Of a stretch of 64,000 bases of DNA, positions 29,981 to 63,038 are shown piece by piece. The first letter of the stretch is position 1. Every line of letters begins with the position of its first letter. The notes under the pieces are model-generated. The model was not told the origin of the DNA. It saw nothing but the letters and a program-made list of their open reading frames with translations, and did not search any database. The position numbers were made by a program, and so were the translations under genes. The DNA is taken from positions 70,073 to 134,072 of the forward strand of contig ASMP01000002.1 in the NCBI GenBank assembly GCA_000405225.1. Reading direction: 5' to 3'. The stretch is from Nanoarchaeota archaeon SCGC AAA011-D5. Lineage in GTDB: Archaea > Nanobdellota > Nanobdellia > Pacearchaeales > GW2011-AR1.

Positions 29981-30004
29981 TTTATAAATCTTGCTATTTT
30001 GTTA
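29981..30004 (-). promoter_or_regulatory. Shared 24-bp promoter (1 mismatch)
   Basis: TAACAAAATAGCAAGATTTATAAA vs consensus TAACAAAATAGAAAGATTTATAAA. Confidence 0.75.
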
Positions 30005-30063
30005 CTTTTTGAGAGTGAGAACACCTTAAAAAGGTTTATAAATAATCTCTTTATCTGCCGAAT

Positions 30064-38384: not shown

Positions 38385-38447
38385 CAAGCTTTTTTTAAGC
38401 TCTGCTAAGACAAATAAATAAGTAAAAACAGGTTTAAATTTTTTGCG

Positions 38448-38464
38448 AACCAGCTTCGCTGGTT
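38448..38464 (-). other. DGR target-recognition hairpin (7-bp stem, GAA loop)
   Basis: AACCAGC-GAA-GCTGGTT immediately after the target stop codon. Confidence 0.85.
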
Positions 38465-39165: not shown

Positions 39166-39186
39166 AGTTTTCTCATAAAAATGAAG

Positions 39187-39210
39187 TTTATAAATCTTTC
39201 TATTTTGTTA
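39187..39210 (-). promoter_or_regulatory. Shared 24-bp promoter of DGR target
   Basis: TAACAAAATAGAAAGATTTATAAA, identical to 41556-41579 and 46902-46925. Confidence 0.8.
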
Positions 39211-39243
39211 TTCTTTTTAAGAGGTAACAAAAGAGGAGTGATT

Positions 39244-41541: not shown

Positions 41542-41555
41542 TAATTCTTTAGTAA

Positions 41556-41579
41556 TAACAAAATAGAAAGATTTATAAA
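41556..41579 (+). promoter_or_regulatory. Shared 24-bp promoter
   Basis: TAACAAAATAGAAAGATTTATAAA, 21 nt upstream of ATG 41601. Confidence 0.8.
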
Positions 41580-41600
41580 TATTATATTGTTTGGTGAAAA

Positions 41601-41981
41601 ATGGAAAGTTTAGAAGATATTGCTGGTATTGATTGGTCTAAAGCATTGCCCAAAGGCAGAAATCCAAATGAGACAAGAAGGATGGTATTATACGAAATAA
41701 GAAGAGGAATCAAAGGGAGATGGGGATTTTTAAGGAACCTCACCAAAACAGAAGATGAAGTTATTCAAATTATTATGTCAACAAGAATAACAAATGATAC
41801 TGAAGCTGCTAAAAAAGTTATAAGATATTTAGAGAACACTAATTATGTTCATTATAGTGATGGTTCTGGTGATATCTCTCTTTGTAATGATGGATATTAT
41901 AATTTAAAAAGAGTTCAGGATAGAAAGGAAAATATAAGATTTAAAATCCTGGATCTTCATTTGCCTACCCATTGGGACTGA
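41601..41981 (+). CDS. Hypothetical protein
   Basis: 126-aa ORF with own promoter, inserted between pop5 and psmA. Confidence 0.6.
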   Translation: MESLEDIAGIDWSKALPKGRNPNETRRMVLYEIRRGIKGRWGFLRNLTKTEDEVIQIIMSTRITNDTEAAKKVIRYLENTNYVHYSDGSGDISLCNDGYYNLKRVQDRKENIRFKILDLHLPTHWD

Positions 41982-46398: not shown

Positions 46399-46776
46399 AT
46401 GCAACAGGAAAAGGAAAAATTCAGCAAATATGAAATCGCGAGGATTCTTGGAGCAAGGGCCCTTCAGATAGCGATGAATGCCCCTTTGCTGATAAAATTA
46501 AGCAAAGAAGACCTGGAAAAAGTAAAATATGATGCCCTAAAAATAGCTGAAATTGAATTTGAATCGGGAGTTCTTCCAATCTCTGTCAAAAAACCTTTCC
46601 CGGAAAGAAAAGAAGACGTTCTAAGGAGACCAAAGGAGCAGAAGATAAGCGACGAGAAAATCGAGGAAAAAGAAGCTGCAGAAGAAGGGGAGATTGCAAA
46701 ACAGGGAGAAATTATGGGCCTTGTAAACCCGGAGGAAGAAACAGAAGAGGAAGTTGTGGGGGGAGAAAGTGAGTGA
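46399..46776 (+). CDS. rpoK: RNA polymerase subunit K (Rpo6) with acidic tail
   Basis: FSKYEIARILGARALQIAMNAP. Confidence 0.95.
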   Translation: MQQEKEKFSKYEIARILGARALQIAMNAPLLIKLSKEDLEKVKYDALKIAEIEFESGVLPISVKKPFPERKEDVLRRPKEQKISDEKIEEKEAAEEGEIAKQGEIMGLVNPEEETEEEVVGGESE

Positions 46777-46835
46777 ACTCGTCCAAGCGTGGCCGAGTTA
46801 GAGGAAACTCGTCCTAGCTATGCCGAATTAGAGGA
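46776..46835. repeat. REP-like unit, two tandem 30-bp copies
   Basis: AACTCGTCCAAGCGTGGCCGAGTTAGAGGA / AACTCGTCCTAGCTATGCCGAATTAGAGGA. Confidence 0.7.
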
Positions 46836-46901
46836 AGTTGCGGATGAAGGAATCGGGGAAGGGTAGTTTTTTCTTACAGATTAGTTGTTATTATAGAAAG
46901 G

Positions 46902-46925
46902 TAACAAAATAGAAAGATTTATAAA
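46902..46925 (+). promoter_or_regulatory. Shared 24-bp promoter
   Basis: TAACAAAATAGAAAGATTTATAAA, 21 nt upstream of ATG 46947. Confidence 0.8.
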
Positions 46926-46946
46926 GTTGGAATTTCTGGGAAAAAT

Positions 46947-47189
46947 ATGGGAAAAACAGATGTAAGACCAAAATTAACGGATTTAATTCCTTTTTACGGA
47001 TGGACCGATTATGTTGGGAGAACTACATTTGGTACTTGGGAAGAAGTTCCAATAAGAAATCAAATAAAAAGAGGGGTTATCATATTAGCTCAGGTAGCCT
47101 ATAATAGCTATATTGGAGCAGAGATTTTAAATATGTTAGAAGGAAAACCTTCTTTCACATACAAACTTCTTGAAAAGATTCTTAATTAA
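46947..47189 (+). CDS. Hypothetical protein
   Basis: 80-aa ORF with own promoter between rpoK and eno. Confidence 0.6.
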   Translation: MGKTDVRPKLTDLIPFYGWTDYVGRTTFGTWEEVPIRNQIKRGVIILAQVAYNSYIGAEILNMLEGKPSFTYKLLEKILN

Positions 47190-47278
47190 TTCTAGAATCC
47201 TCAAAGACTAGATGTAAGAAATTCTTTAATAATCAAAATCATCAGTAAATTTATATACTGAAATATTTTTTCTAATTA

Positions 47279-48448
47279 ATGGTCGTTATAAAAAGCGTTT
47301 CTGCCAAATCTATTTTTGATTCAAGAAAAGAGAGAACGATCCTTGTTTCCATAATGACAAACGTTGGAGAATTCAGAGCAAGCGCACCAAACGGAAAATC
47401 CAGGGGAAAACACGAACAGAGTCCATATAAGAAAGATTTAAAGGGGGACATAAAAACCCTGAAACAATTCAGCAGATACTTTTCTGAGGACGAGATAGAA
47501 AAATTTTGGGATTTGAGAAGAATAGAGGACATAGTTGAAGGGCATGTCGGGGCAAATACCCTTTTTGCTTTGGAATCAGCTATCTTAAAGGCCCTTGCAA
47601 GGGAAAAGAAAAAAGAAGTCTGGCAGCTGATTAATCCAAACGCAAAAAAATTCCCGAGATTAATCGGAAATTGCATCGGCGGGGGAAAACACTCCAGAGC
47701 TTCTTCAATTACAGGAAAGAAGCCCGATTTTCAGGAATTTTTACTTATACCAAAAGCAAATTCTGTTAAGGATTCTTTTAAGATAAACAAAGAAACAAAA
47801 AAAGAAATTTGGTATGCACTTAAAAAAGGGGATGGAAAATTTCAGGGCAAAAAAAATGATGAGGACGCGTGGCAGACTTCCCTTAATGAAAAAGAAGTTC
47901 TGGATATTTTAAGAAATTTTGGGATTGCTTTAGGGATGGATGTGGCGGCTTCAGGTTTTTACAAAAGAAAGAAATACCATTACCAGAATCCGGTTCTTCA
48001 GAGGACAAAAGAAGAGCAATTTTCCTATATTTCAAACCTGATAAAAAATTTTTCGCTTTTTTATATTGAAGATCCTTTTGAAGAAGAGGATTTTGAGGGC
48101 TTTTCCAGGCTTTTAAAAAAATATCCGAATTTCTTGATAGTGGGAGATGATCTCACCGTCACTAATGGAAAAAGACTTGGGAGAGCTATAGGAGAAAAAA
48201 GCATAAATGCAATAATTGTCAAGCCAAACCAAAACGGTTCTTTGATCCAGGTCATGGACATATGCGGGTCTGCAAAAAAACATGGCATAAAGATTGTTTT
48301 TTCCCACAGGAGCGGAGAAACGATGGAAAACATTCTCGCCGACCTGGCTTTCGGATTTCAGGCTGATTTCTTCAAGTGTGGTATAACGGGAAAGGAACGC
48401 GAGGCGAAAATAAAACGTCTTATAGAGATAGAAAAGAAAATTCGATAA
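47279..48448 (+). CDS. eno: Enolase (short, divergent)
   Basis: DSRKE, GMDVAAS, IEDPF, VGDDLTVTN, VKPNQ, SHRSGET. Confidence 0.92.
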   Translation: MVVIKSVSAKSIFDSRKERTILVSIMTNVGEFRASAPNGKSRGKHEQSPYKKDLKGDIKTLKQFSRYFSEDEIEKFWDLRRIEDIVEGHVGANTLFALESAILKALAREKKKEVWQLINPNAKKFPRLIGNCIGGGKHSRASSITGKKPDFQEFLLIPKANSVKDSFKINKETKKEIWYALKKGDGKFQGKKNDEDAWQTSLNEKEVLDILRNFGIALGMDVAASGFYKRKKYHYQNPVLQRTKEEQFSYISNLIKNFSLFYIEDPFEEEDFEGFSRLLKKYPNFLIVGDDLTVTNGKRLGRAIGEKSINAIIVKPNQNGSLIQVMDICGSAKKHGIKIVFSHRSGETMENILADLAFGFQADFFKCGITGKEREAKIKRLIEIEKKIR

Positions 48449-48523
48449 GTTACTGCTTCGTCCAAGCTTGGTCAAATCAGAGATTGATTGAGATTGAGAA
48501 GAAGATTAGATAATCTTAAAGAA

Positions 48524-49955: not shown

Positions 49956-50816
49956 ATGCCAAGGAAAAAGAAAGAATCAAAAGAAGATATTGCTGAAGAG
50001 TCGGAAGAACAGCCGGAAGAGGCTGAATCAGAATCTTCGGATGAGAAAATCAAAGAACTTGAGGAAAAAAAGAAAGTTCTTGCAGAAAAGGTGAAGAAAC
50101 TCAAGGAAAAAATTTCTGCTAAAGAGGTAAGCACAGAGGAACTTAAGGAAAAAATCAAAGCTAAAAAAAGAACAGATATGCTTGTTCCTCTAGAGGAGTA
50201 TGTCAAGGCAGGAATTTATCTCGGAACAAGGGTTGTGACACCCAACATGAAGCCTTTTGTTTACAGGAGAAGGGCAGATGGCCTTGCAATCTTTAATACA
50301 GACACTATAGACGAGAAATTAAAAGAAGGGGTGGAATTCTTGTCAAGGTTTGCTCCAGAAGACGTAATTCTTGTCTGCAAAAGGCAGGCAGGATGGCGAG
50401 CTGCAGAAAAGTTTTCCGAATTGACAGGGGTAAAAGCTTTCACAAAAAAGTATCCTGCAGGAATTCTTACCAATAGCCAGCTCCATGATTTTTTTGAAAA
50501 TGAGCTTACTATAATCACAGACCAATGGGTTGACAAAAACGCACTTAACGATACTTTAAATGTCCGTAAGAAAGTTCTCATGATCTGCGACACAAACAAT
50601 TTCTCCCAAGGAGCAGACCAAATAATAATAGGAAACAACAAAAGCCCTAAAAGTCTCGGGCTTATTTTTTATATTTTGGCCAGGGGATATTGCAAGGCCC
50701 GCGGCCTTAACACGGAGAAAATTCCTGATTTGGAGTGGTGGACGGGCGAGGAAGGGGAAACGGTTGAAAAAAGAACTCTGATAAAACCAGAGCCTGTCGC
50801 AGAATTTGGCGTATAA
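49956..50816 (+). CDS. rps2: 30S ribosomal protein uS2 with charged N-terminal extension
   Basis: YVKAGIYLGT, RRRADGL, YPAG, DTNN, GNNKSPKSL. Confidence 0.92.
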   Translation: MPRKKKESKEDIAEESEEQPEEAESESSDEKIKELEEKKKVLAEKVKKLKEKISAKEVSTEELKEKIKAKKRTDMLVPLEEYVKAGIYLGTRVVTPNMKPFVYRRRADGLAIFNTDTIDEKLKEGVEFLSRFAPEDVILVCKRQAGWRAAEKFSELTGVKAFTKKYPAGILTNSQLHDFFENELTIITDQWVDKNALNDTLNVRKKVLMICDTNNFSQGADQIIIGNNKSPKSLGLIFYILARGYCKARGLNTEKIPDLEWWTGEEGETVEKRTLIKPEPVAEFGV

Positions 50817-51174
50817 GATTATGGAGAAAAGAACCAAAAATTATTCAAGAAAAACAAAGCCTAAATTTAAAAAATCCCTGAATATTTTTCTTGGTGTTGT
50901 TATTTTTGTTGCCCTTATAGGCTCTGCATTTGCAATAAGCATTCTTTTTGGTGTTGCCTTCATCATAGCTTTCTCCCTGGCGGTTTATACAGGAGAACTG
51001 AAGAAAAAACCGTGGAAACCAATGGCAATATTCATCGGTGCAGTACTGATAAGGCTTGCCCTTAAGCAATATCTTGACCCTGTCCTTGCATCAAAAACAC
51101 TTCTGGACCTGGCTGTTTCAGCGCTGATATTTTTATCAATACTGATTTTCGGATGGAAAATCAAGAAGAGTTAA
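50806..51174 (+). CDS. Hypothetical membrane protein
   Basis: Four hydrophobic helices; overlaps the rps2 end. Confidence 0.6.
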   Translation: MAYKIMEKRTKNYSRKTKPKFKKSLNIFLGVVIFVALIGSAFAISILFGVAFIIAFSLAVYTGELKKKPWKPMAIFIGAVLIRLALKQYLDPVLASKTLLDLAVSALIFLSILIFGWKIKKS

Positions 51175-51540
51175 GGGAAGAATTTTTTATATGAAATTAT
51201 AAAGTAGTAACAAAAGAGAAAGATTTAAATAGTAGAAGATTAGTAAAAATTTATGGAAAAAAATTTGGTAGATCTTGTTATAATTGGTAATGCTTTTGTT
51301 TTAGGTGGTGCTTTAAGTCAGTTAATGCTTTATGGTCTACACAAAGCAAGACTTTCAGAAAGAGAATTTACAACTGGTAAAGAAGAAACAAGAAAGTATG
51401 TAGAAAGAGTTCAAGAACTAAATAAATCTTCTCTAAGAAGAATAGTTTTTTATGGTGCGAATCTAGCAAATAGAAAATATTTAGAAAGTATTAAATAACA
51501 ATTCATATTCAACGTAAGTTGATTTCATAATTAATTCTTC
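51175..51540 (+). mobile_element. Inverted-repeat-bounded gene cassette, copy 1 (intergenic)
   Basis: Left end 51175-51197 identical to 58628-58650; right end 51503-51540 is 37/38 identical to 59102-59139. Confidence 0.8.
51253..51498 (+). CDS. Cassette cargo: hypothetical protein with N-terminal hydrophobic helix
   Basis: 81 aa; preceded by shared-promoter variant 51208-51231. Confidence 0.6.
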   Translation: MEKNLVDLVIIGNAFVLGGALSQLMLYGLHKARLSEREFTTGKEETRKYVERVQELNKSSLRRIVFYGANLANRKYLESIK

Positions 51541-51576
51541 TTGATTATTTTTATCAAACCTTGAACCACAACCAGC

Positions 51577-51959
51577 TCACTTAACAAACTCAACGTTTTC
51601 AATGTCTTTAAATTGTTTATCTCCAGTAAGGAATTTTGCATTGTTCTTTTTTGCTATAATATATCCTATACAATCAATATAAGATAGTTTTCTTTTTTAT
51701 TTAATAATTTGAATTCATTTGATTTTTTTATTATCTCATCTGAAATTTCCATTATTAGGGGCAGAAGAAAATCATAATGAAAATCGGCTTCTTTTTTACC
51801 TGCAGTACGCAATAAAAAGTAATGCAATTCCATTAAATTCAATTTTGTGGTAATAAAGTGGCCTTTTTTGTATAATTCATAATTCTTATTACGGTTAATT
51901 ATTTCAATTAAAGCATAAGTATCTAAGAAGTATGCCGTTTCTTCAAATGCTGTTTCCAT
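51577..51959 (-). pseudogene. vapC: VapC (PIN) toxin, frameshifted
   Basis: YFLDTYALI N-terminus; LSYIDCIGY..FLTGDKQF C-terminus lies in the -1 frame after an A6 run near 51690; stop at 51577. Confidence 0.85.
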
Positions 51960-52186
51960 TCTTTTTCCTCAAGATCCCATTCTTCTTTTCTCATCTCGTC
52001 TTTAAACTTCTGGGCATCTAATTTTAGATTCTTCAGGGAGCCAAAAATGGAAGAGAGATCTGTCTCTTTAATTATGCTTATAGACACTTTTTCGTTTTCT
52101 TTAAGTCTCTGTCTATCAACGATTTCCTTAGGTAAGATTATTCCCATAGAATTTCCCCATCTCCTTAATCTAACTTGTATTGTCAT
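51923..52186 (-). CDS. vapB: AbrB/MazE-type antitoxin (VapB)
   Basis: LRRWGNSMGIILPKEI. Confidence 0.9.
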   Translation of the reverse strand: MTIQVRLRRWGNSMGIILPKEIVDRQRLKENEKVSISIIKETDLSSIFGSLKNLKLDAQKFKDEMRKEEWDLEEKEWKQHLKKRHTS

Positions 52187-52245
52187 TTTACCTTTAGTGA
52201 TACTTTAATTATACATATGTATAACTTGTTTATAAACCTTCCTAT

Positions 52246-52701
52246 TTAAACCTTCATCCACAGCCACCCGTTTTTCACATAACCTGTTTTTACAAGAACG
52301 TAATTTCCTTTTAGCTTCTTGCCATTAAGTTCAAACTCTATTTTCTTTTCATCTTTGCTCTTTAGCATATAAGTTCCGTTATCCCAGATTTCAACCTTGC
52401 CAGCGCCGTAATTCCCTTCAGGAATTGTGCCTTTGAATTTTGCATATTCTAAAGGATGGTCTTCAACATGGATAGCAAGTCTTTTTTCTGACTTTATGGT
52501 TGGCGGAGGTTTTGGAACAGCCCAGCTCCGAAGAACTCCGGACATTTCCAGGCGAAGGTCGTAATGCAAATGAGAAGCTTGATGTTTGTGAATAACAAAA
52601 ATAGGTTTTCGTGCCGGCGGCGTTCGAGGTAATTTTATTTTTCCTTTTGGTTCAGGGGTTTCAGAGAATTTTCTTTTATTTTTGTAGATTTCTAAGGGCA
52701 T
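52246..52701 (-). CDS. Stand-alone LigD 3'-phosphoesterase (PE) domain
   Basis: FVIHKHQASHLHYDLRLEMSGVLRSWAVPK, VEDHPLEY, WDNG. Confidence 0.92.
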   Translation of the reverse strand: MPLEIYKNKRKFSETPEPKGKIKLPRTPPARKPIFVIHKHQASHLHYDLRLEMSGVLRSWAVPKPPPTIKSEKRLAIHVEDHPLEYAKFKGTIPEGNYGAGKVEIWDNGTYMLKSKDEKKIEFELNGKKLKGNYVLVKTGYVKNGWLWMKV

Positions 52702-52762
52702 ATATTTCTTAAGGAAGAAGTATATAAATAATTAATGTGCAGGTCCTCAAGGTGGACTATTT

Positions 52763-53731
52763 TCAGTTTTCAACGGCTAAGACTTCGCCTGTTTCAGAGT
52801 CTATGATGACGTCTGTCTCGACTCCATTTCTTGAATCGACTATTTCAACAACATACGCTGTTTTTCCAAGTTTCGTTTCAATTGCAACATCTGTGATTTT
52901 TCCTGGAACTTCTTTTAATGCTATTTCCCTGGCTTCAGCCTCTGTTATCTTTGTTTCCAGTTGTCCAAGAAGTTTTTCAGCAGGAGTTGGCTGTGCATTA
53001 TATTCAACACTTATTAGTTCAAGCCTTTCTCCACTTTCAATACTTACTTCCAGAACGGCAAATCCAACTTCGGGGCAATAATACTTGTGCTCCTTGGCGC
53101 TTGAATCTAAATAGCTATAATCATAAGTTTTCAAACAATTGTTTAAGACTTTGTATTTTGTCGTTACTGTTTCTCCTAAAGCGAGAACATCTGCTGCATC
53201 TTCTGCCACGCCTTTATAATATTCCTGCCTATAAGAATCACCAGGAACAGGATTTGCTTTCATGATTATTCCGGGTTTCGCGCCATCGACTCCTACCTCC
53301 CAAGCACCTGCTTTATTTACAATTCTTTTATTCAGTACTTCCATAGTGTCTTCGCCGAAGTACCAGACATTTCCTTCTTTGTCCTGGGCATACCAGTCTT
53401 TTGTGTCCTCGATGAGGTTTCCATCAAGCCAGACACGGTCCCAAACAACAGTTGCTTCCACGCCCATGACTTTTTTGGTTTCTTTCATTACATAGATTTC
53501 TATTCTTTCTTTTCCATCCTGAGTCACTGATTCATAAACCATTTTTTTCCCGGGTGTCAGGGAAAAATATTTGTTATCCACATTTGAGGTAAAATCAGAG
53601 GGGTTGATTGTTGGGTTATAGGTTTCTTCTGTACCTGGTTTTTTTGAATAAAAATAAAAAAGAGAAGCGTTGATTAATAGCAAAGCTAAGACTAATACTG
53701 CGATGAGGTAAATCTTATTCATTTTCTCCAT
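52763..53731 (-). CDS. Secreted/anchored protein with C-terminal PepSY domain
   Basis: N-terminal TM; DWYAQD.EGNVWYFGE domain; ITEAEAREIALKEVPG...YVVEI PepSY. Confidence 0.8.
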   Translation of the reverse strand: MEKMNKIYLIAVLVLALLLINASLFYFYSKKPGTEETYNPTINPSDFTSNVDNKYFSLTPGKKMVYESVTQDGKERIEIYVMKETKKVMGVEATVVWDRVWLDGNLIEDTKDWYAQDKEGNVWYFGEDTMEVLNKRIVNKAGAWEVGVDGAKPGIIMKANPVPGDSYRQEYYKGVAEDAADVLALGETVTTKYKVLNNCLKTYDYSYLDSSAKEHKYYCPEVGFAVLEVSIESGERLELISVEYNAQPTPAEKLLGQLETKITEAEAREIALKEVPGKITDVAIETKLGKTAYVVEIVDSRNGVETDVIIDSETGEVLAVEN

Positions 53732-53944
53732 TTTTTATTGTCCAAGTGAAAGAAAACAGTCAAATTGCCCTATTTATAATTATCTATTGTCTTTATTTTT
53801 TCTTCTGTTTTTAGTGATTCCATAAATTCTAAAGATATTGCCGATAACATCAGAATTTAACGAAGTTGCCGAAACGAAGCGTAGGCAATTTGGGTGATTG
53901 GTGAGCCCCAAAAAATTAGAAGGATTTTATAAATTCTATGAAAT

Positions 53945-54892
53945 CTAGTGTCTTTTATGACCATGCACTTTCTTTATTACAACTAGAGTCAAGTCATCTT
54001 CTAGCGGACAAAAGGAGTATAATTCCCTTTTTATTGCTTCACATATCTCTTTTGCAGGTTCGTCTTTGGTCTCTCTTAATATATTTTCAAGTTTTGTGTC
54101 TCTGAATCGTGATGTCCCATCATTGTGTTCTGTCAGACCGTCTGTATAGAGGAGCATTATGTCGCCATGCCCCAAGAGGTGTATTTCATTAACATCGAAT
54201 CCTCCGTTTGTATTGTTTAGTGGGTCGAAATGTTCTGTGTTTATGCTGAATTTTCCAGGAAGGACCCCTAGCGGCGTTGACGCTTTTGTACGATCGCTGC
54301 AGAGCATCTGGATTTTATTGAATTCATTTGAAAAAATAATTGGCTGAGGATGACCTGCTGAAAGAAACCTGAAGCGTCCGTCGCCATGGATCTCTCCGTA
54401 AAGCAGGGTTGTGTACGGCTTAACCTGCAGATAATCGGGCTGCATATGTGTATAAAGATCTGAGTTAACTATTTCAAAAAGTTCTTGAGTAATCTCTCCG
54501 TTGTGATTAAGTTCATATATAATCCCTGTTTTGAACGCTCCATGCAGGTAGTTGACTATAACATTGCTCCCAATCATATGCCCTGCGACATCTGCAATCA
54601 GTATGCCGAAGCCGTCGAGATTTTTTTTTAGCCTTTCTGTCAGCACAGTATTGCCGGATTTTGTTGCCTCTGCTATTTTTTGTTTCAGTTTGTATTCCCT
54701 GAAGTTTACCAAGATAACATGATCACCGCCGATGCATCCCCTTAAAGGCTCTATGGACACGTGATAGTCTATTCCAGGAAGCCTCGGATAATTTCTTGGT
54801 AACACGAGAGATCCGACTTCCTGAAAGTGTAGCAACTCATCAACCAGTTCATCCTTTGGCCATTCCCTGATAGGTTTTATTGTATGTTTCAT
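53945..54892 (-). CDS. PP2C/SpoIIE-family Ser/Thr phosphatase
   Basis: IGGD, IADVAGH, SAGH, LYTDGL, EDDLT; ATG 54892 preferred (ORF track 54949). Confidence 0.88.
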   Translation of the reverse strand: MKHTIKPIREWPKDELVDELLHFQEVGSLVLPRNYPRLPGIDYHVSIEPLRGCIGGDHVILVNFREYKLKQKIAEATKSGNTVLTERLKKNLDGFGILIADVAGHMIGSNVIVNYLHGAFKTGIIYELNHNGEITQELFEIVNSDLYTHMQPDYLQVKPYTTLLYGEIHGDGRFRFLSAGHPQPIIFSNEFNKIQMLCSDRTKASTPLGVLPGKFSINTEHFDPLNNTNGGFDVNEIHLLGHGDIMLLYTDGLTEHNDGTSRFRDTKLENILRETKDEPAKEICEAIKRELYSFCPLEDDLTLVVIKKVHGHKRH

Positions 54893-55006
54893 AATGATAT
54901 ATCCAGAAACTTGCCACAAATTTATACAAGCGATAAGTCGCGAATACAAAAATTGTAGACGCTGCCATGACTAGAAAGCATCAAAAGAGCTTTTTGATTT
55001 ATAAGA

Positions 55007-55108
55007 TTATTTGCTTTTTCTTGGTCTTCCTCTTCCCTTTTTCTGCGGCTCTTTCTTATCTTCGTCTTTTTCGTCTAATTCTTCTTTCATTTCCTGTTCT
55101 GATTCCAT
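55007..55108 (-). CDS. 33-aa AT-hook microprotein (not in ORF track)
   Basis: MESEQEMKEELDEKDEDKKEPQKKGRGRPRKSK; TTTAAA promoter-like box ~25 nt upstream. Confidence 0.55.
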   Translation of the reverse strand: MESEQEMKEELDEKDEDKKEPQKKGRGRPRKSK

Positions 55109-55476
55109 AAATTTTTCATGAATGTTTGATTTAAAAAACTTGCGCAAATCGACGAAACATTTATAAACAAAAAGATTTCTTATTCCTTGTTAACTAAGAT
55201 GAGTGCCTTAAAAATGTGCATATTTCACGTCAAAATCAAAGACGTTAATAGCATTAAGGTATGAAGTATGTAGAAGCAGTCACTTAGTTGTATTCTTATA
55301 AATCTCAATAAACGAGTTAAATTTAGGCTAAAGCCAATAGGAGGATTGAGTGAAGTGTTCGTTTCTTACCAAAAATAACGAATGCGCGGAGATTTTCTTG
55401 CTTATTTTGCCGTCGGAAACGGCGAGTTAAATGAGTGAGCAATATTTATCTAATTAAATAAAAATCTATGAAGTTA

Positions 55477-56921
55477 AATCCAGTTGATCCTGCTGGCGGC
55501 TGCGGCTCTCTGGTTTGCACTTAGACATGCAAGTTGTTTCTCTTAGAAATAGGAGGAAAGCGAACTGCTCAGTAACACGTAGCTAACCTACACTTAGGTC
55601 AAGGATAACCTCGGGAAACTGAGGCTAAACCCTGATAAATGTGAGACCCTGGAAAGAACTCACATTCAAACTCGCGCCTAAGGATGGGGCTGCGGCGGAT
55701 TAGGTAGTTGGCGGGGTAATAGCCCACCAAGCCTGTGATCCGTAAGGGCTCTTAGCGGAGAGGCCCTGAGAGGGAATCTGAGACACTATTCCCAGCCCTA
55801 CGGGGTGCAGCAGTTAGGAATCATCTGCAATGCGCGAAAGCGTGACAGTTTGAACCAGAGTGCTTCTCAATTGAGAAGCTTTTGCCAAATGTAAAAAGTT
55901 TGGCGAATAAGGACTGGGTAAGACGAGTGCCAGCCGCCGCGGTAATACTCGCGGTCCAAGTCGCAGCCACAATTATTGGGTCTAAAACATCCGTAGCTTG
56001 TCTGGTAAGTTCCTTGTGAAATCTTATCTCTTGAAGATGAGGCGTGCGAGGAATACTGCCAGACTAGAGACCGGTAGACGCAGGAAGTATGTTCGAAGTA
56101 GCGGTAAAATGCTTTAATCTCGGACAGACTCACAACAGCGAAGGCATCCTGCGAGAACGGTTCTGACTGTCAGGGATGAAGGCTAGGGGCGCAAAGTGGA
56201 TTAGATACCCATGTAGTCCTAGCAGTAAACACTGCACACTAAACATCAGTACCTCCTCGAGAGGCATTGGTGCTGCAGCGAAGGCGAAGAGTGTGCTACC
56301 TGGGAAGTATAGTCGCAAGGCCGAAACTTAAAGGAATAGGCGGGGAGACACTACAACGGGTGACGCGTGCGGTTCAATTAGATTCTACACCGTGAACCTC
56401 ACCAGGACCGACAGCAGAATGAAGGTCAGTCTGAAGGGCTTACCTGACACGCTGAGAGGAGTTGCATGGCCGACGTAAGCCTGTGTCGTGAGATGACCTG
56501 TTAAATCAGGTAACAGGCGAGACCCACATGTATATTTACTACGTGTACAATATACAGATTGCCTCGGTAACGTGGATGAAAGCGTGGGCAACGTTAGGTG
56601 AGTACAGCCTGAATGCCCTGGGCGACACGCGCGCGTCAATGGTGGATACAGTGGGATGCGACTCCGAAAGGAGAAGCTAATCTCTTAAAGTCCATCTCAG
56701 TCCAGATTGAAGCTTGCAATTCAGCTTCATGACGCTGGAATCCGTAGTAATCGTTTGTTAGCAGCGAACGGTGAATACGTCACTGTCTCTTGCACTCACT
56801 GCCCGTCAAACCAACCAAGTTGTGTTATGGTGAAACCAGTTTTGGGAGAACCTTAGCATGGTGAGGTAGGTTAAGTCGTCACAAGGTATCTGTAGGGGAA
56901 CCTGCAGATGGATCACCTCCT
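55477..56921 (+). rRNA. rrs: 16S rRNA (archaeal, no intron)
   Basis: AATCCAGTTGATCCTG 5' end, GTGCCAGCCGCCGCGGTAA, 3' GGATCACCTCCT. Confidence 0.98.
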
Positions 56922-57074
56922 AAAATTTAAAGATACGAGACAAGAGAAATCACAACAAAATAATTGTTTCTACATACTCATCTAGTTTCAGAAAAGTCCA
57001 AGTGGAAAACGGGCAAGCGTTTAGTTTTTAATAATAAAAAATTTAAAAACAACTGCTGGCTCATTTTTTGTTAT

Positions 57075-57145
57075 GGGCCTGTAGTCTAATGGTAAAACAC
57101 TTCGCTTGCACCGATGAGCTCCGAGTTCGATTCTCGGCAGGTCCA
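57075..57145 (+). tRNA. tRNA-Ala(UGC), CCA not encoded
   Basis: Cloverleaf with TGC anticodon, G3:U70 pair, A73; single mismatches in D and anticodon stems. Confidence 0.92.
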
Positions 57146-57171
57146 TAAGTTTTTCTGAAATAAATTAGTTA

Positions 57172-57273
57172 ACTGAAAACCACCTGCGGGTTTTTCACAA
57201 TTCCTGCAGCTAGGTTAGATCACAAATCATATTCACTGAAAACCACCTGCGGGTTTTTCACAATTCCTGCAGC
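57172..57273. repeat. 39-bp direct repeat x2 in ITS
   Basis: 57172-57210 = 57235-57273, separated by 24 nt. Confidence 0.9.
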
Positions 57274-58627
57274 CGTGGACGTGAAAACATGGTGAGGGAA
57301 GAAGTTCCTTTATCAGTTTGAGAAAATAACTCACAATTATTTTCAATGAGATAAGCAACGAATGGTTTTCCTGATTTAGAAGGACATACTATTACCGACG
57401 CTGTTAGATGGATGGCTTGGTTTTGGTTTCGATGAAAGACGTGGCAAGCTGCGATAAGCTTGGGGGAGCCGCATGCAAGCTTTGATCCCAAGATTTCTGA
57501 ATCGTGCACCCATGTTTACATGGTCTGCAAGAATACGCCGGGAATTGAAACATCTTAGTACCGGCAGGAAGAGAAAATAAATTAATGATTCCCCTATTAG
57601 CAGAGAGCGAAAAGGGAAGAGGGCAAACCGAATCTCCTCTTGAAAGGGAGGCAGAGATGTGGTGAGCGTAAATTCCTAAGTCGTCGAGTCAAACTTCTCT
57701 GGAATGAGAGGCCTTGGAGAGTGATAGCCTCGTAGACGAAGATGATATGGAGTTGCTTTAAAGAGTAGGGCTCCCTGGATTGGGGGTCTGAATACGGCAG
57801 GATTAACTGCCAACCCTAAATAAAACCAAAGTCCGATAGCGCACTAGTACCGCGAGGGAATGCTGAAAAGAACCCGTAACAGGGAGTGAAAAGATCTGAA
57901 ATCTAACAGTTACAGTTTGTTACTGCCCTTTCCTCTTCGGAGGATTGGGGTTGTAACGTACGTTTCGAAGAACGAGCCAGGGAGTTTATTTGTGTGGCGA
58001 GGCTAATCATCTATAATGAGTAACCGAAGCGAAAGCAAGTTGGAAACAGCGAGAGTCACACGAATCAGACCTGAAGCCAGGTGATCTAATCATGGGCAAG
58101 GTGAAGTCTTCCGAAAGGAGGATGGAGGCCTGAACCAGTGTTGTGTACATGCACTTGGATGATCTGTGATTAGGGGTGAAAAGCCTATCTAACCTGGTGA
58201 TGGCTGGTTCCTGCTGAAATATGCCTCCGTATAGTCTTGTCTAGCTTGTCGACGGTGTAAAGTACGGATAAAATTTGCAGAGGCTAATGCCTACGGAATT
58301 TTTTCCAACTCAGAATCTGTCGACTGCATAGGACAAGAAACAGGGTGTGTATGTAAGATACACCTCCGAGACCCAAAAAAGGGAGACCAGAGTTAAGGTC
58401 CCTAAATTCATGCTAAGTGCGACAAAAGGTGTCCTGGACCTGAGACACTAGGGATGTAAGCTTAGAAGCAGCTATCATTTAAAGAAAGCGTAACAGCTCA
58501 CCTATCGAGGCCCAAGGCCCTGAAAATGGACGGGGCTAAGCATGGTACCGATACTCTGGAGGCACTCGGTTTAAAATAGTATAACAAAAATCAAAGATTT
58601 TTGTGCGTCTGCCAAGATGGTAGGCGC

Positions 58628-59140
58628 GGGAAGAATTTTTTATATGAAATAGGAAAAGAAAAGGTTTTTAAACTTTAAAGTAACAACAAAATTATGAATT
58701 TGAAGACGCTCCTTACAACAAAAAAAGATGAAAGAATAATGATGGATTTTGCTAGAGGAAAGATTAATTATTTAGAGGATGGTTTTCTTCAAAAAAATTT
58801 CCCAGACTTGTTTAGAAATCTTAAAAGTTATCGCGGTAGATGGGATGAGTTTGGAGAAGAACTTGAAAGAAGGTGTATAGAAAGAACAAGAGATATTTCA
58901 CAAAGAAAGGTAGATTATGGTGCAATACTTCATAATGTTGGAGTTGCTATTCCATTTTATTTTTTTACTGCACTCGTTAATATTGTTGGTGGTCTTGGTG
59001 GGGGGATTCATAAAACCCAAGAGATGCTTGATGAGGATTTAAGACCATATATGAAACCAACTTATAAATTGGCAAATTCTAATTAAAATATAATTCACAA
59101 ATCATATTCAACGAAAGTTGATTTCATAATTAATTCTTCC
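58628..59140 (+). mobile_element. Inverted-repeat-bounded gene cassette, copy 2 (inside 23S)
   Basis: Ends match 51175-51197 and 51503-51540; left and right ends pair 9 bp + 8 bp. Confidence 0.8.
58694..59086 (+). CDS. Cassette cargo: hypothetical 130-aa protein with hydrophobic segment
   Basis: Intact ORF with upstream TTTTAAA box; no LAGLIDADG/HNH/GIY-YIG motif seen. Confidence 0.7.
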   Translation: MNLKTLLTTKKDERIMMDFARGKINYLEDGFLQKNFPDLFRNLKSYRGRWDEFGEELERRCIERTRDISQRKVDYGAILHNVGVAIPFYFFTALVNIVGGLGGGIHKTQEMLDEDLRPYMKPTYKLANSN

Positions 59141-59838
59141 TGTACTATACAGAGTGTTCTGGTAAGCAGGCGTCTTTTCTGCGTCGAAGCTTCTTCGAGA
59201 GAAGGGGTGGAGCGGAAAGGAATGAGAATCCTGGTGGTAGTAGGATGTGATTTCTCTGAGAAAGAGAAACGTCGAAAGGGTAAGGTTTCCTTGGCAATAT
59301 ATTTTAGCCAAGGGTTAGTCAGCGCCTAAGTTGTGCCCTAACAGAGTACGACGATGGACAACAGGTTAATATTCCTGTACTGATCAAATTTTACATTTTA
59401 GGAAAGCTTTCGGATAAGCAAGCACCCGGAAGGGTGTTCTGGGAAAGAGACGGGGGGAGCGTAATGCAAAGATCTCTGTGAATTTTTCAGACAAAATTTC
59501 TGACTCCGAGAGCCAGTGAAAAGTTCTAGAGTTAAACGAGTTTGGTTAGCTGTACCCACAACCGACACTGGTGCCCTAGCTGAGAAGGCTAAGACGTGAA
59601 AGGAAAAACCAACTAAGGGAATTCGGCATATTGGTCCTGTAGCTTCGGCTGAAGGGATGTCTATCTTTGTGCTTCGGTTCGCAAGAATTTTAGGTGCATC
59701 GGTAGATTACAATAACAAAGATGGCCCGACTGTTTACCAAAAACGTAGCCAAGTGCTAATCTGTAAAGACTTGTATACTTGGTGAGCCCTGCCCAGTGGC
59801 GGTGTCTGAAACCCCTTTTCAAGGGGGCTAATGCCCGT

Positions 59839-59875
<37 letters not shown>

Positions 59876-60519
59876 GTAATGCCTTGTCGTCTGAATGGCG
59901 ACGTGCATGAATGGGTTAACGTGGTTGTCACTGTCCCTAGTTGGGACCTTCTGAACACACTTCGTGGTGAAAAGGCCACGGACGCCTAGTGGGAAGCGGA
60001 GACCTTGTGGAACTTTACTGCAACTTGTTGTTGTAATTTTAAGTGGAATGCATAGAATAGGTAGGAGCGTCGAGTCCCTCTTTTCGGAGGGGGAGGAGCG
60101 AAAGTGTAATACTACCCATTTTTATTAGAATTGCTTACCGTTTACGGAACAGCAGCAGGCGGGCAGTTTGGCTGGGGCGGCGCCCTGTCGAAAAGATATC
60201 GATAGGACCCAAAGTCAAGCTCATCCGGCTTGGAAACCCGGAGTTGAGTGCGAGGGCAAAAGCTTGACTGACTGTATTCTGAAAAGCAAGGAATGCAGGG
60301 ACGAAAGTCTGGCCTAGTGAACCCACGTGCTTTTTTAATAGAAGCCGTGTCTGATAGAAAAGTTACCCCAAGGATAACAGGCTTGTCGCACCCGATAGTC
60401 CATATTGACGGTGCGGTTTGGTACATCGCTGTCGGCTCTACCTATCCTGCGCGTGCAGAAGCGTGCAAGGGTGTCGGAGTTCACGCATTAAAAGGTATCG
60501 TTAGCTGGGTTAAGAACGT

Positions 60520-60842
60520 CAAAAATAGACCCAATTAACAGATAAGTACTGAACAAAGAACTTGACAAGCAAAAAATAAATAATTAACGCGGCGTTGCGC
60601 ACGAGTAATTGTGCGAAAAATAAAATCAGCTCATATCGGTGGAGGCTTGATGTTTAAATTGATTAAACTGTCAGCATCATGTTAATACCGAGGGAAGTCG
60701 TAATTGACCCCGTAGAGACTTAGAGTTTAAAACTCTGGAGTTCTGCTGTTAAAAGCAGAGCTAAGACGCTGATCTCCGTTGTGCAAACAACGGATGAAGG
60801 TATAGTCCATACAACACAAAATCATAAGTGTTGAGTAATATA
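60520..60842 (+). mobile_element. Group I intron (IA-like) at 23S position 2593, no homing endonuclease
   Basis: Exons GAACGT|CGCGAGACAG; IGS 60588-60596; P3 60625-60630/60768-60773; R GAGACT 60715-60720; S AAGGTATAGTCC 60797-60808; P8 with GCAA loop. Confidence 0.92.
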
Positions 60843-61099
60843 CGCGAGACAGTTTGTATGATATCTACTAGGTGTGTTGTTGTCTGAGTGGAACGAACTT
60901 GTAGTACGAGAGGAACCAGGTTCGGGAGCCTCTGGTGAGCAGTTGTCATCTGGCAGGCTGCATAGCTACGCTCCATACGGATAAGAGCTGAATGCATCTA
61001 AGCTCGAAGCCGCCCGCAAAACGAGACAACTAAGGCCGTCATAGAAGATGACGTTGATAGAGTTGGGGTGTAAGATTCAAGCTTTTGGTGAGGCGAGAA

Positions 61100-61217
61100 T
61101 TTCAGCCCACAACTACTAAAAGCCTCAATTTGAATTTTCTTTATAAGAAGATTCTATAATATGTTATGTCCACACAATTCTTTTTCAGAAAACCATTCGT
61201 TGTTTGTTGAGTTTTTT
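61100..61217 (+). repeat. 23S 3'-end repeat copy 1 (118 bp identical to 61891-62008)
   Basis: Exact direct repeat; first 39 bp also at 62571-62609. Confidence 0.95.
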
Positions 61218-61221
61218 GATT

Positions 61222-61542
61222 TTAATATCCAAATCTTCTTTCATAAGTCTTATGATCCATCCATTCAAGAATAATGGAGAAAACCAAGAGATTTTTTCCT
61301 TCTACACTATAAATCAATCTCCAAGCATCAGGCAAGTTATATTTCCATAAATTTTTAACATTATATTTTTTTAGGTATTCTTTTGGAATTAGCTTTTTAG
61401 GAATTTGTATTCCGCAAAAAGCATTATTTTCTATATCTTCAAAAGCTCTAGAAATGAGTCCATACATACTAGTGTCTTCATCTTCTAGTTTATGAAATGC
61501 ATTTTTTATTTTTTCACTGACAAACTGGATCTTACTTCTCAT
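61222..61542 (-). CDS. RelE/ParE-family toxin
   Basis: NLWKYNLPDAWRLIY...WMDHKTYERRFGY. Confidence 0.8.
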   Translation of the reverse strand: MRSKIQFVSEKIKNAFHKLEDEDTSMYGLISRAFEDIENNAFCGIQIPKKLIPKEYLKKYNVKNLWKYNLPDAWRLIYSVEGKNLLVFSIILEWMDHKTYERRFGY

Positions 61543-61831
61543 TTTTTCGCCACATAAGATGTGTTTTTTTCAACAACTTTTCAACATCTTTGGGATAATA
61601 AATCCATCCTATCTTCCCTTCAGAATCTACAGAAACCTTTCCAGATACTATCAGATAATCCAATATCAAGGAGAAAGTCTGATACATTACTCCCTTAGGA
61701 AGAGCACTCCAAAGCTGTTTTTTCCTGAACTCTCCGTCATGTTCTTTTATGAATTCCTCTACAAAAAGCACAGTATCCAGTCTAGGAAACCTTGCCGAAG
61801 GATTTTCTTTCCTTAACATGCTAAATGTCAT
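61532..61831 (-). CDS. Putative antitoxin (winged helix)
   Basis: PRLDTVLFVEEFI...YQTF..ILDYL; overlaps the toxin start. Confidence 0.65.
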   Translation of the reverse strand: MTFSMLRKENPSARFPRLDTVLFVEEFIKEHDGEFRKKQLWSALPKGVMYQTFSLILDYLIVSGKVSVDSEGKIGWIYYPKDVEKLLKKTHLMWRKNEK

Positions 61832-61890
61832 GGTTATATCAATTGATATACCTTTATAAATTTTTGGATTTTCTTATTTAGTTTAGGCTG

Positions 61891-62008
61891 TTTCAGCCCA
61901 CAACTACTAAAAGCCTCAATTTGAATTTTCTTTATAAGAAGATTCTATAATATGTTATGTCCACACAATTCTTTTTCAGAAAACCATTCGTTGTTTGTTG
62001 AGTTTTTT
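61891..62008 (+). repeat. 23S 3'-end repeat copy 2
   Basis: Identical to 61100-61217. Confidence 0.95.
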
Positions 62009-62047
62009 TATGATAAATCTTTTATACTTATATTTCCTTGTCTGTTC

Positions 62048-62359
62048 ATGAAGGAGTATTCTCTTTTATTTGATAAAGAATTTGTTAAAGCATACAGAAA
62101 ACTGGACAAATCGCTTCAGATAGAGGGAGACAAAAAACTTAAAAGATTAAAAATAAATCCAAGAGAGATTGGGAAACCTTTAAGATTTTTTCCAAATTTA
62201 TATGAATTGCATTTGAGGATGTACAGAATTTATTATGTGGTTGAGGAAGCAGAGATAAAGGTTCTCCTTCTGTCTATTTTGCACAAAGATGAGCAGGATA
62301 GATTTCTAAGAAGTCTAACAAAGGAAAGGATAAAGAGAATTATCGAAGAGAATTTCTAA
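62048..62359 (+). CDS. RelE/ParE-family toxin
   Basis: FDKEFVKAYRKL...NPREIGKPL...YELHLRMYRIYY; ATG 62048 preferred (ORF track 61952). Confidence 0.8.
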   Translation: MKEYSLLFDKEFVKAYRKLDKSLQIEGDKKLKRLKINPREIGKPLRFFPNLYELHLRMYRIYYVVEEAEIKVLLLSILHKDEQDRFLRSLTKERIKRIIEENF

Positions 62360-62507
62360 AGAATTCTTGTTCTGAAATGTAATTTCCAGAATTGATTCTA
62401 TTTAATGCTTCAGACAAATTTCTAATTAGTTTCCTGTTCATCAAAACAGCCAAGGCTCTCTTTAGCTCTTGGTTCTCTTCTCTTAGATTCTTCATTGCAG
62501 TATCCAT
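62340..62507 (-). CDS. Putative 55-aa antitoxin, convergent with toxin (not in ORF track)
   Basis: MDTAMKNLREENQELKRALAVLMNRKLIRNLSEALNRINSGNYISEQEFFRNSLR; upstream AAAAGTTTAAAAA promoter. Confidence 0.6.
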   Translation of the reverse strand: MDTAMKNLREENQELKRALAVLMNRKLIRNLSEALNRINSGNYISEQEFFRNSLR

Positions 62508-62570
62508 ATTTATCCTAAATGCCCAAAGTTTTTAAACTTTTACCCTGTTTTTAGGTTTCTTCGGCGACTG

Positions 62571-62644
62571 TTTCAGCCCACAACTACTAAAAGCCTCAAT
62601 TTGAATTTTATGTCTGGAAGAATCAGGAAAACCATTCGTTGCTT
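62571..62644 (+). repeat. 23S 3'-end repeat copy 3 (probable original) with perfect processing-stem strand
   Basis: 39-bp core, plus 62621-62644 is the exact reverse complement of pre-23S 57353-57376. Confidence 0.9.
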
Positions 62645-62654
62645 GTTGAGTTTT

Positions 62655-63038
62655 TTATCTCATTCTAACTAAACTCTTCAATACCCACCCATAATATGTT
62701 CCCTGATATCTGCTATCTGAAACAATTATCTTAACCCAATCGCCCTGTTCTTCTTCAATTAAAACTCGTACGCCCCCATTACAAAAATTGTCTGATTCAG
62801 GCAGCACATAATTAGATGCAAAATTTCCATTATCTGTTGGTTCTGTAAATAAAGGAACGGGTCCATTATCAATGCAAGTTCCATCGTCTTCTACTAAACT
62901 TAGATATCCTACTATTAAATTTTCAGAATTATTTGAAGAGGTTGCTTCTTTAGATAAAAATGGACTAGCAACAATACCAAGAATTATCAAACCAATGATG
63001 GCAGTTAAAATTGGATGTTTCTTTATCCAAGCATTCAT
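62655..63038 (-). CDS. Membrane-anchored protein with SH3-like C-terminus
   Basis: N-terminal TM; EEQGDWVKI...YYGWV pattern. Confidence 0.55.
   Translation of the reverse strand: MNAWIKKHPILTAIIGLIILGIVASPFLSKEATSSNNSENLIVGYLSLVEDDGTCIDNGPVPLFTEPTDNGNFASNYVLPESDNFCNGGVRVLIEEEQGDWVKIIVSDSRYQGTYYGWVLKSLVRMR

Follow-up and report, generated by a model that had tools for sequence, protein, structure and literature searches.

A 64,000-nucleotide stretch of the forward strand of Nanoarchaeota archaeon SCGC AAA011-D5 (assembly GCA_000405225.1, contig ASMP01000002.1, positions 70,073 to 134,072; hereafter the window, with positions counted from its first letter) carries two short cassettes, W1 and W2, that have the same ends and enclose different small open reading frames (ORFs). 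W1 stands directly behind a membrane-protein gene, and W2 is carried inside the 23S rRNA gene of the sole rRNA operon seen in the window. The comparisons described here point to the apical loop of one 23S rRNA hairpin as the place where such cassettes belong. The scope in the genome is this 64-kb window, and most of the other loci compared (contigs with L numbers) are short metagenome contigs. The features of the two copies and their surroundings, all on the plus strand, are as follows.

51175–51540, +: cassette W1, 366 bp, ectopic; begins right after the stop codon of the membrane-protein gene at 50806–51174
51224–51231, +: W1 TATA box TTTAAATA, 21 nt upstream of the ATG
51253–51498, +: W1 cargo ORF, 81 aa, orphan, with a hydrophobic N-terminal segment
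51501–51522, +: W1 3′ module, AUUCAUAUUCA and the hairpin UCAAC-GUAA-GUUGA
51541–51564, +: 24 nt missing from the empty site of L010; partial duplicate of the membrane-gene interior at 51124–51139
57220–57285, +: spacer copy of the motif UCACAAAUCAUAUUCA with the hairpin UUCAC...GUGAA, in the tRNA-Ala–23S spacer and at the same place in ~15 relatives
57384–61139, +: host 23S rRNA gene, complete (2069 bits)
58558–58627, +: 5′ strand of helix 45, conserved extension base GGUUUAAAAUAGUAU and a two-hairpin side module (58583–58627)
58628–59140, +: cassette W2, 513 bp, in the apical loop of 23S helix 45 (shared ends; covariance-model alignment)
58628–58650, +: W2 left stem strand, GGGAAGAAUU and AUGAAAU, pairing with the right end
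58665–58672, +: W2 TATA-like box TTTTTAAA, 21 nt upstream of the ATG
58694–59086, +: W2 cargo ORF, 130 aa, all-helical (low-confidence model), with a C-terminal hydrophobic segment and no family
59095–59121, +: W2 3′ module, motif UCACAAAUCAUAUUCA and the hairpin UCAAC-GAAA-GUUGA
59122–59140, +: W2 right stem strand UUUCAUAAUUAAUUCUUCC
59141–59162, +: helix 45 extension and 3′ strand UGUACUAUACAGAGUGUUCUGG

Two cassettes share ends that pair with each other

The 23-nt left end, GGGAAGAATTTTTTATATGAAAT, has two exact sites in the window (51175–51197 and 58628–58650, 0 mismatches); no third site was found there with up to three mismatches allowed, and none of 100 shuffles matched at all. The right end, CATATTCAACGNAAGTTGATTTCATAATTAATTCTTC, likewise has exactly two sites in the window (51504–51540 and 59103–59139), and by BLAST the similarity spans 43 nt with 2 mismatches (51498–51540 and 59097–59139). 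A preliminary description of this DNA, made from the letters alone, had reported these shared ends and had remarked that the one difference between the two right-end hairpin loops keeps a GNRA sequence. This is true of the window copies (GTAA and GAAA) and of related copies with GCAA, but pentaloops outside the GNRA type, GTTTA and ATTTC, occur in other related copies. The ends are imperfect inverted repeats of 10 + 7 bp (GGGAAGAATT/AATTCTTCCC and ATGAAAT/ATTTCAT, the right partner of GGGAAGAATT being also written AATTCTTCC(C)), as the same description had proposed, and they pair in both minimum-free-energy and centroid RNA folds when W1 and W2 are each folded with their flanks. The elements have a G+C content of 26–30%, compared with 38% for the window and 46% for the rRNA.

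The presence of just two copies in the window would fit a one-off duplication, or a chimera in which the assembler joined unrelated sequence at a short repeat. Contigs L001 and L002 from an independent Logan assembly (run SRR3927433) span both copies and both junctions, one as an exact substring of the window and the other differing by one base in a T-run outside the element. The longest exact repeats common to W1 and W2 are short (23 and 25 nt), and the junctions with rRNA-like flanks offer an assembler no shared repeat. Mis-assembly is unlikely, because two independent contigs reproduce the copies together with their junctions. Eleven further metagenome loci with the same ends, including one identical cassette found in four separate assemblies, leave the probability of an artefact negligible.

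W2 fills the apical loop of a 23S rRNA hairpin

By covariance-model alignment, 581 nt are inserted into one hairpin loop, at archaeal large-subunit model positions ~1296–1305; this is the first hairpin after the GTPase-centre helices. When the insert was removed and the gene aligned to rrlH of E. coli MG1655, the insertion point fell at E. coli 23S positions ~1173–1176, in the hairpin that we take to be helix 45 in the standard numbering. This name is consistent with PMC4990558. The 581 nt are made up of the 513-nt cassette, an extension of the helix (GGUUUAAAAUAGUAU ... UGUACUAUACAGAG) and two small side hairpins, a side module that shows compensatory changes in L008 and L011. Both the location of one copy inside 23S rRNA and its closure as a helix, as first described, are borne out.

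The same 23S gene contains a second insertion of 322 nt (60521–60842), missing from four relatives, within which 60576–60833 gives a weak full-length match to a group I intron model (E 0.034, under the gathering score); the insertion probably represents a group I intron like those reported from Pacearchaeota. Further downstream, the last ~47 nt of the 23S gene together with the trailer (the 3′ strand of the processing stem) occur three times (61092–61225; 61883–62016, 98% identity; 62563–62656). Two toxin-antitoxin-like pairs lie between these repeats, one YoeB-like (61222–61542 and 61532–61831) and one with ParE (61952–62359 and 62340–62507). These long direct repeats resemble what an integration via recombination at the rRNA 3′ end would leave behind.

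Filled and empty sites in related archaea

A metagenome scan with the right end recovered 11 further loci from JGI and ENA (Hainich) groundwater assemblies which, with W1 and W2, make up nine distinct cassettes having the same ends (family A). Seven of these loci lie within 23S, in the same loop and co-oriented with the rRNA (four distinct cassettes), and four lie in the spacer between the enolase and rpS2 genes (three distinct cassettes). The left strand is identical in all eight family-A cassettes that have a left end, L009 being cut before it. The right end had no match among GTDB species genomes, and neither end matched viral contigs.

The rpS2 loci of 80 related species representatives identified the host lineage as Pacearchaeota/Woesearchaeota (Nanoarchaeota in GTDB); the helix-45 region fell inside the fetched flank in 21. 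The loop is a plain 4–5 nt in 17 of the 21 (e.g. CACUC-AGAA-GAGUG), three (L085, L073 and L052) have ORF-bearing inserts of 330–540 nt, and one (L076) has an ORF-less insert of 139 nt. The stems of these inserts have other sequences (GAUUUUGAUGUUGAG/CUCAACAUCAAAAUC and others); what they share with family A is the extension base (GGUUUAAA... / ...AUAGAG), the layout and the 3′ motif. Counting the related genomes, the collection comprises 13 ORF-bearing cassettes and one ORF-less insert, nine of which (eight with an ORF, one without) occupy the helix-45 loop and represent four stem-end families in several species. The closing duplex has an energy of −22 to −29 kcal/mol in each of the four families: its pairing is conserved across families and its sequence is not. 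Empty alleles, which the preliminary description had proposed to look for, thus include the plain loops of the 17 representatives as well as the W1 site in L010, described next.

Copies outside the rRNA operon

In L010, a relative in which the W1 site is empty (1947–1964), the membrane gene is followed by 12 nt and then by the convergent PIN gene. The window differs from this arrangement by the cassette plus 24 nt (51541–51564), a tract that partly copies the membrane-gene interior, with a local alignment score met by 3 of 2000 shuffles. The enolase–rpS2 spacer houses three cassettes with three different cargos, and two of them keep pieces of rRNA. L012 retains GGTAGTAT of the helix-45 extension on its left side, and L009 retains, before the rpS2 promoter, 26 nt of the helix-45 3′ strand and the following rRNA, of which 23 are identical to the rRNA of L008. 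A third copy, L061, belongs to another end family and lies in the rpo6–enolase spacer with a complete helix 45 and some flanking rRNA, ~10 nt upstream and 4 nt downstream. Because these flanks are ordinary rRNA sequence, L061, L009 and L012 were copied from the rRNA into the spacers.

All four independent ectopic sites lie 0–35 nt past the stop codon of a co-directional gene, and the ectopic copies are confined to three spacers of one conserved block, rpo6–enolase–rpS2–membrane–PIN, which precedes the rRNA operon by a few kb. Transcription running on from the gene upstream would let the ends of ectopic copies pair in RNA too. Since nine inserts of four end families sit in the helix-45 loop of several species, and since ectopic copies keep rRNA flanks, the evidence points to this loop as the home site of the cassette.

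The preliminary description had pictured instead a transposon-like element that happened to sit in rRNA. A non-autonomous DNA transposon of this sort, resembling a miniature inverted-repeat transposable element (MITE), would capture genes, depend on a transposase acting in trans and land by chance in a tolerant rRNA loop. Such an element would explain the imperfect terminal inverted repeats (10 + 7 bp), identical in all copies, the occurrence of copies at several kinds of site, and the way W1 and L006 stop exactly at the repeat ends; moreover, 23S genes are known to harbour insertion sequence (IS) elements that have inverted repeats (PMC2672173). However, three ectopic copies carry rRNA beyond the repeats, which repeat-based transposition would not do, and the other families at the same loop have different ends and the same architecture. 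In agreement with the preliminary description, no short target duplication was found at the flanks of W1, L006, L012 or L061 or by comparison with the L010 empty site (at the rRNA site, helix pairing confounds the reading of GTAT), and no transposase was found in the window, near either copy, or at the 11 metagenome loci. Those 11 loci are all small-ORF cassettes with no autonomous partner among them, and the left flanks (TTAA, ATCG, GTAT, GCGC) have no common target motif. On this evidence we consider the transposon explanation unlikely. An element of the IS200/IS605 type, or a palindrome-associated transposable element, was also considered and rejected: the left flanks differ, as listed, and neither TnpA nor TnpB is encoded in the window.

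Several further irregularities were noted in this gene block. The 3′ end of the enolase gene (RLIEIEKKIR-stop) is doubled at 48414–48513, the two versions standing 32 nt apart with synonymous differences (a score reached by 0 of 2000 shuffles); because it stands twice, this suggests that the enolase end was replaced via recombination where relatives carry a cassette. Between rpo6 and enolase the window has an 80-aa gene with its promoter (46853–47205), a homologue of which sits between enolase and rpS2 in the close relative L014 (130–480); movement between these spacers is therefore not limited to the cassettes but extends to other small gene units. A reading of this unit as a circular permutation was dropped after alignment. 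The weaker inverted repeat at ~46947–47189, which the preliminary description had proposed to inspect, did not hold up as a family feature: the 9-bp repeat is missing from the homologous unit in L014. The PIN gene (51577–51959, minus strand) is frameshifted in the window at a T-run (51693) and intact in L002 (127 aa), which is either an assembly error or a real polymorphism.

A promoter for leaderless mRNA and a 3′ motif shared with the rRNA spacer

All 13 ORF-bearing cassettes have one layout: left stem, TATA box, 21 nt, ATG with one small ORF, tail, motif and hairpin, right stem. Each cargo therefore has its own promoter, as previously described, in the form of a B recognition element/TATA-like box (TTTAWATA) exactly 21 nt before the ATG in every cassette. 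The same spacing is the rule of the host. When TATA-like boxes ahead of an ATG opening an ORF of at least 60 codons were counted, 13 stood at 21 nt, those of enolase, rpS2 and the W1 ORF among them, and 0–3 at any other distance from 8 to 44 nt. In archaeal promoters a spacing of 21 nt puts the transcription start at or next to the ATG, giving a leaderless mRNA.

The 3′ element consists of the motif AUCAUAUUCA (core CAUAUUCAA, fuller form (A)UCAUAUUCA) and a small hairpin, UCAAC-loop-GUUGA or UUCAC-loop-GUGAA, that begins in the last bases of the motif. The inner pairs of the hairpin vary with pairing kept (UCAAC/GUUGA, UUCAC/GUGAA, UCAAUA/UAUUGA); RNAalifold returned no structure for it, as stem indels threw the alignment off, and individual folds were used instead. 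The motif also occurs, as AAUCACAAAUCAUAUUCA with a hairpin, shortly after tRNA-Ala in the tRNA–23S spacer of ~15 relatives (57220–57235 in the window); no further copy was found in the window. As the motif is the mark of a transcribed spacer beside the 23S gene, our working inference is that it may serve to process or stabilise pre-rRNA, a signal that the cassette would have in common with the spacer or would imitate. In that case the insert would be treated like a spacer within the gene. Three other identities were rejected by eye: a K-turn (the right end lacks tandem G-A pairs), box C/D (a D box is missing from the ends and the motif) and an intrinsic terminator (no T-run follows the hairpin).

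In the window, the spacer copy of the motif is flanked by a 42-nt direct repeat (57169–57273, 98% identity, 63-nt period), the second unit of which sits within the loop of the spacer hairpin. A separate promoter module of ~35–50 nt, (G)TAACAAAATAGAAAGATTTATAAA, recurs ahead of several small or accessory genes (29981–30022, 39159–39217, 41543–41607, 46889–46953 and 51195–51259), including a likely retroelement target gene and the W1 cargo.

Cargo changes within a conserved backbone

In family A the sequence ahead of the ATG comes in classes, each conserved as far as the start codon. Class one, with CTTTAAAGTAACAACAAAATT-ATG, comprises W2, L004, L006 and L008; class two, with a GTAAAAGATTAAGAAAAAGTT-like spacer, comprises W1, L003 and L009, and is also seen in L085. 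The 3′ motif comes in corresponding variants, AAUCAUAUUC with class one and AAUUCAUAUUC with class two. Because the 3′ variant tracks the 5′ class in eight of nine family-A cassettes (L011 is mixed), the 5′ and 3′ backbones appear to be passed on as a pair and the intervening ORF to be exchanged, with the putative 5′ breakpoint at the ATG. Selection for expression, recombination or the capture of leaderless transcripts may each underlie this exchange.

In the most far-reaching scheme, helix 45 would be a natural safe-harbour slot for expression. The backbone, made up of the closing stem, the promoter and a spacer-like 3′ processing module, would accept the transcribed part of unrelated leaderless genes. 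Loaded cassettes would pass between species by recombination via the near-universal rRNA flanks, giving episymbiotic archaea a population-wide pool of swappable small proteins in the manner of an integron without an integrase. Capture via an RNA intermediate is suggested because the 5′ breakpoint falls exactly at the start of transcription and translation. A search for YxDD in window ORFs of 200 aa or more revealed no reverse transcriptase, and RNA-mediated copying would therefore have no enzyme in view. We hold this scheme to be possible, though doubtful.

A true integron-like system would treat the paired ends as a folded, attC-like site for an undetected recombinase, by which circles are inserted at helix 45 and at secondary sites. 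Constant structured ends around unrelated single ORFs, conservation of structure rather than sequence between families, the restriction of cassettes to a few defined sites, and the presence of the core motif CAUAUUCAA both beside the 3′ end and at a fixed tRNA–23S spacer site all agree with such a system. Yet no integrase or recombinase was found in the window, the cassettes are always single and never arrayed, and each has its own promoter, whereas integron cassettes typically lack one. The variable rRNA flank on ectopic copies is unlike a site-specific crossover, and the spacer motif site is cassette-free in all ~15 genomes. A recombinase acting on an attC-like site is, in our judgement, quite improbable.

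Cargo proteins

The cargo ORFs encode 61–159 aa, one per cassette, and all read in the direction of the rRNA. Their openness far exceeds what chance would give in sequence this rich in A+T (p ≤ 0.001 in 12 of 13, and 0.0085 for the shortest). That the cargos are interchangeable and unrelated, as claimed from the 81-aa and 130-aa ORFs of W1 and W2, extends to all 13 ORFs found in this one architecture: pairwise comparison, at the protein or nucleotide level, gave no significant similarity, W1 against W2 included. No Pfam family scored above threshold for the 12 cargos scanned, Pfam and PHROG gave nothing at E ≤ 0.1 beyond three sub-threshold Pfam matches of the L009 cargo, and NCBIfam yielded nothing significant for the two window cargos. 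When three cargos were compared with a word-indexed collection of 5.8 billion proteins, only self matches were returned; this search missed the one relative of the W2 cargo that an exhaustive HMMER search, which covered the W2 cargo only, recovered.

This relative, on contig L094, matches the W2 cargo over its full length without gaps, at 55% identity in amino acids and 70% in nucleotides. Divergence is greatest at third codon positions, the pattern expected of a gene whose protein is under selection. The L094 gene is free-standing, beside a tRNA-methyltransferase-like gene and without cassette ends; no tRNA was called downstream of it by ARAGORN. Since the homologue is colinear and free-standing, the W2 cargo at least belongs to a genuine protein family with members outside cassettes. 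The L094 frame (2224–2616) has an in-frame TGA at codon 49 and is otherwise colinear and conserved; the TGA could reflect a pseudogene, a sequencing error or recoding.

AlphaFold predicted an all-helical W2 cargo with a pLDDT of 49.5, too low for a fold search. By eye, the W1, W2 and L052 cargos have one hydrophobic segment each and the L061 cargo has a signal- or lipoprotein-like N-terminus; other cargos look soluble.

Relation to known systems

Bacterial intervening sequences (IVSs) are sporadic inserts in the apical loop of 23S helix 9, 25 or 45, closed by a terminal complementary stem, some of which contain one ORF (PMC4990558, PMC2801512). The origin and movement of rRNA IVSs have been unresolved since 1990 (PMC4990558). 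Like the helix-45 IVSs of Coxiella, Leptospira, Salmonella and Campylobacter, the cassette replaces the apical loop with an extended stem-loop, is closed by a stem of terminal complementary sequences, is low in G+C and has no transposase; it is similarly sporadic, being filled in 4 of 21 representatives and not in 17. It differs in its archaeal host, in a host-type promoter for leaderless mRNA (the Coxiella ORF is apparently unexpressed), in ORFs that are unrelated between lineages, none of them of the S23p family, and in having a constant backbone with changing cargo and secondary copies outside rRNA. The defining step of a bacterial IVS is excision by RNase III with no ligation, which leaves a fragmented 23S rRNA, whereas the cassette is known from DNA alone. 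Of the systems compared, the cassette works most like the bacterial helix-45 IVS: position and structure agree, and the S23p ORF does not.

Integron cassettes resemble it in carrying one small, often orphan ORF and a structured imperfect inverted repeat, and in their very large cargo diversity. In contrast, the present cassette has no integrase or arrays, brings its own promoter, pairs its ends across the cargo and has its home in an rRNA gene. MITEs and IS elements in the 23S genes of Nostoc and Deinococcus (PMC2672173) also have terminal inverted repeats and are tolerated in 23S. They differ from the cassette, which has no transposase partner, target duplication or dispersed copies, carries rRNA in some copies, and shares its loop with families that have different ends.

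The eukaryotic expansion segment ES15L also sits at helix 45 and shows that ribosomes can function with long extensions there. The side hairpins at the insert's base, which covary, look expansion-segment-like; unlike the cassette, expansion segments have no promoters or genes.

ORF-bearing rRNA introns of archaea and of the candidate phyla radiation (CPR) (PMC6125680, PMC11270868) are likewise protein-coding rRNA insertions in small-genome, episymbiont-type lineages, spread through conserved flanks. The cassette has no bulge-helix-bulge (BHB), ribozyme or homing endonuclease, and its small ORFs are diverse. Its position, ~1170, is not among the archaeal group I insertion positions listed in PMC6125680. 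Were it an intron of the archaeal BHB or group I/II type, it would be spliced with ligation of the rRNA. Related archaea do have 23S introns (group I in L007, and the weak match at 60576–60833), in agreement with PMC6125680, and slipped pairing in L003 and L004 could form a weak BHB-like motif. But no BHB is conserved at the junctions: it is absent from L008 and L011 and weak in W2, and scan matches are at chance level. No Rfam model matched within the cassette at the gathering score or at E ≤ 5, a ribozyme would not fit into the constant parts (23 + 43 nt), the cargo ORFs are not homing endonucleases, and copies occur outside any RNA gene. A spliced intron is therefore very improbable. The BHB form in particular was rejected, the junction being a continuous helix and an explicit scan having found no conserved motif.

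No described family corresponding to the cassette was found in the libraries and papers searched, which is consistent with the preliminary description; papers on CPR rRNA insertions and archaeal group I introns, within a partial coverage of the literature, do not describe it. New are its occurrence in archaea, the leaderless ORF driven by a promoter, a backbone that stays constant around cargo of unlimited diversity, and the copies at secondary sites.

A proposed archaeal counterpart of the helix-45 IVS

Taking these observations together, we think it probable that the window repeats are the ends of a stem-closed expression cassette that has its home in the helix 45 loop of Pacearchaeota/Woesearchaeota-type DPANN archaea and is a counterpart of the bacterial helix-45 IVS. 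The pre-rRNA would fold the cassette ends into a helix continuing helix 45, and the insert would then either persist as a tolerated expansion segment or be removed in the manner of a spacer, possibly with the shared spacer motif as a processing signal. The small protein would be made from the internal promoter. Cargo would be swapped inside the conserved backbone, with one breakpoint at the start codon, and cassettes may spread between genomes via homologous recombination through the constant ends and the conserved flanks in the rRNA. On rare occasions a nearby 3′ untranslated region would receive a copy of the entire hairpin, by illegitimate recombination or through an RNA intermediate.

Some findings weigh against this proposal. 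RNase III, which excises bacterial IVSs, is to our knowledge generally lacking in archaea, and the IVS-associated family (Pfam 23S_rRNA_IVP, S23p) was absent among the 12 cargos scanned. W1 and L006 end exactly at the repeat ends without any rRNA flank that would indicate the direction of their transfer. The constant ends are identical across species whose 23S genes diverge by ~5–9%, and for this reason an unseen sequence-specific recombinase or nuclease may recognise the ends. The family-A loci were found through the exact 23 nt of the right end.

With filled and empty sites, several end families, a constant backbone whose cargo changes and rRNA-flanked copies, the system makes the origin, mobility and function of IVSs directly testable. 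A promoter-driven protein gene inside an rRNA operon raises questions about transcription through the rRNA, about possible fragmentation of archaeal 23S rRNA and about how the ribosome copes. The cargos are a reservoir of orphan small proteins in episymbiotic DPANN archaea, some membrane-anchored or secreted-looking, and they could mediate host contact or conflict. In these lineages, inserts of this kind will also throw off binning that relies on rRNA, as well as primer design and gene calling.

Other repeats in the window

Two further repeat systems were noted at a distance from the cassettes. A 34-nt hairpin-forming repeat, AACTCGTCCAAGCGTGGCCGAGTTAGAGGAAACT, occurs at 5–38, 12814–12847 and 46776–46839; at 46776 it is in tandem, and its first base is the last base of the rpo6 stop codon. 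A 97-nt repeat pair (38087–38573, 80% identity) has many differences that are T in the first copy and C in the second (A/G on the minus strand), resembling the template and variable repeats of a diversity-generating retroelement. A match to the RT-16 RNA (38185–38410, minus strand) lies between the two copies, and the variable copy lies at the 3′ end of an ORF at 38464–39165.

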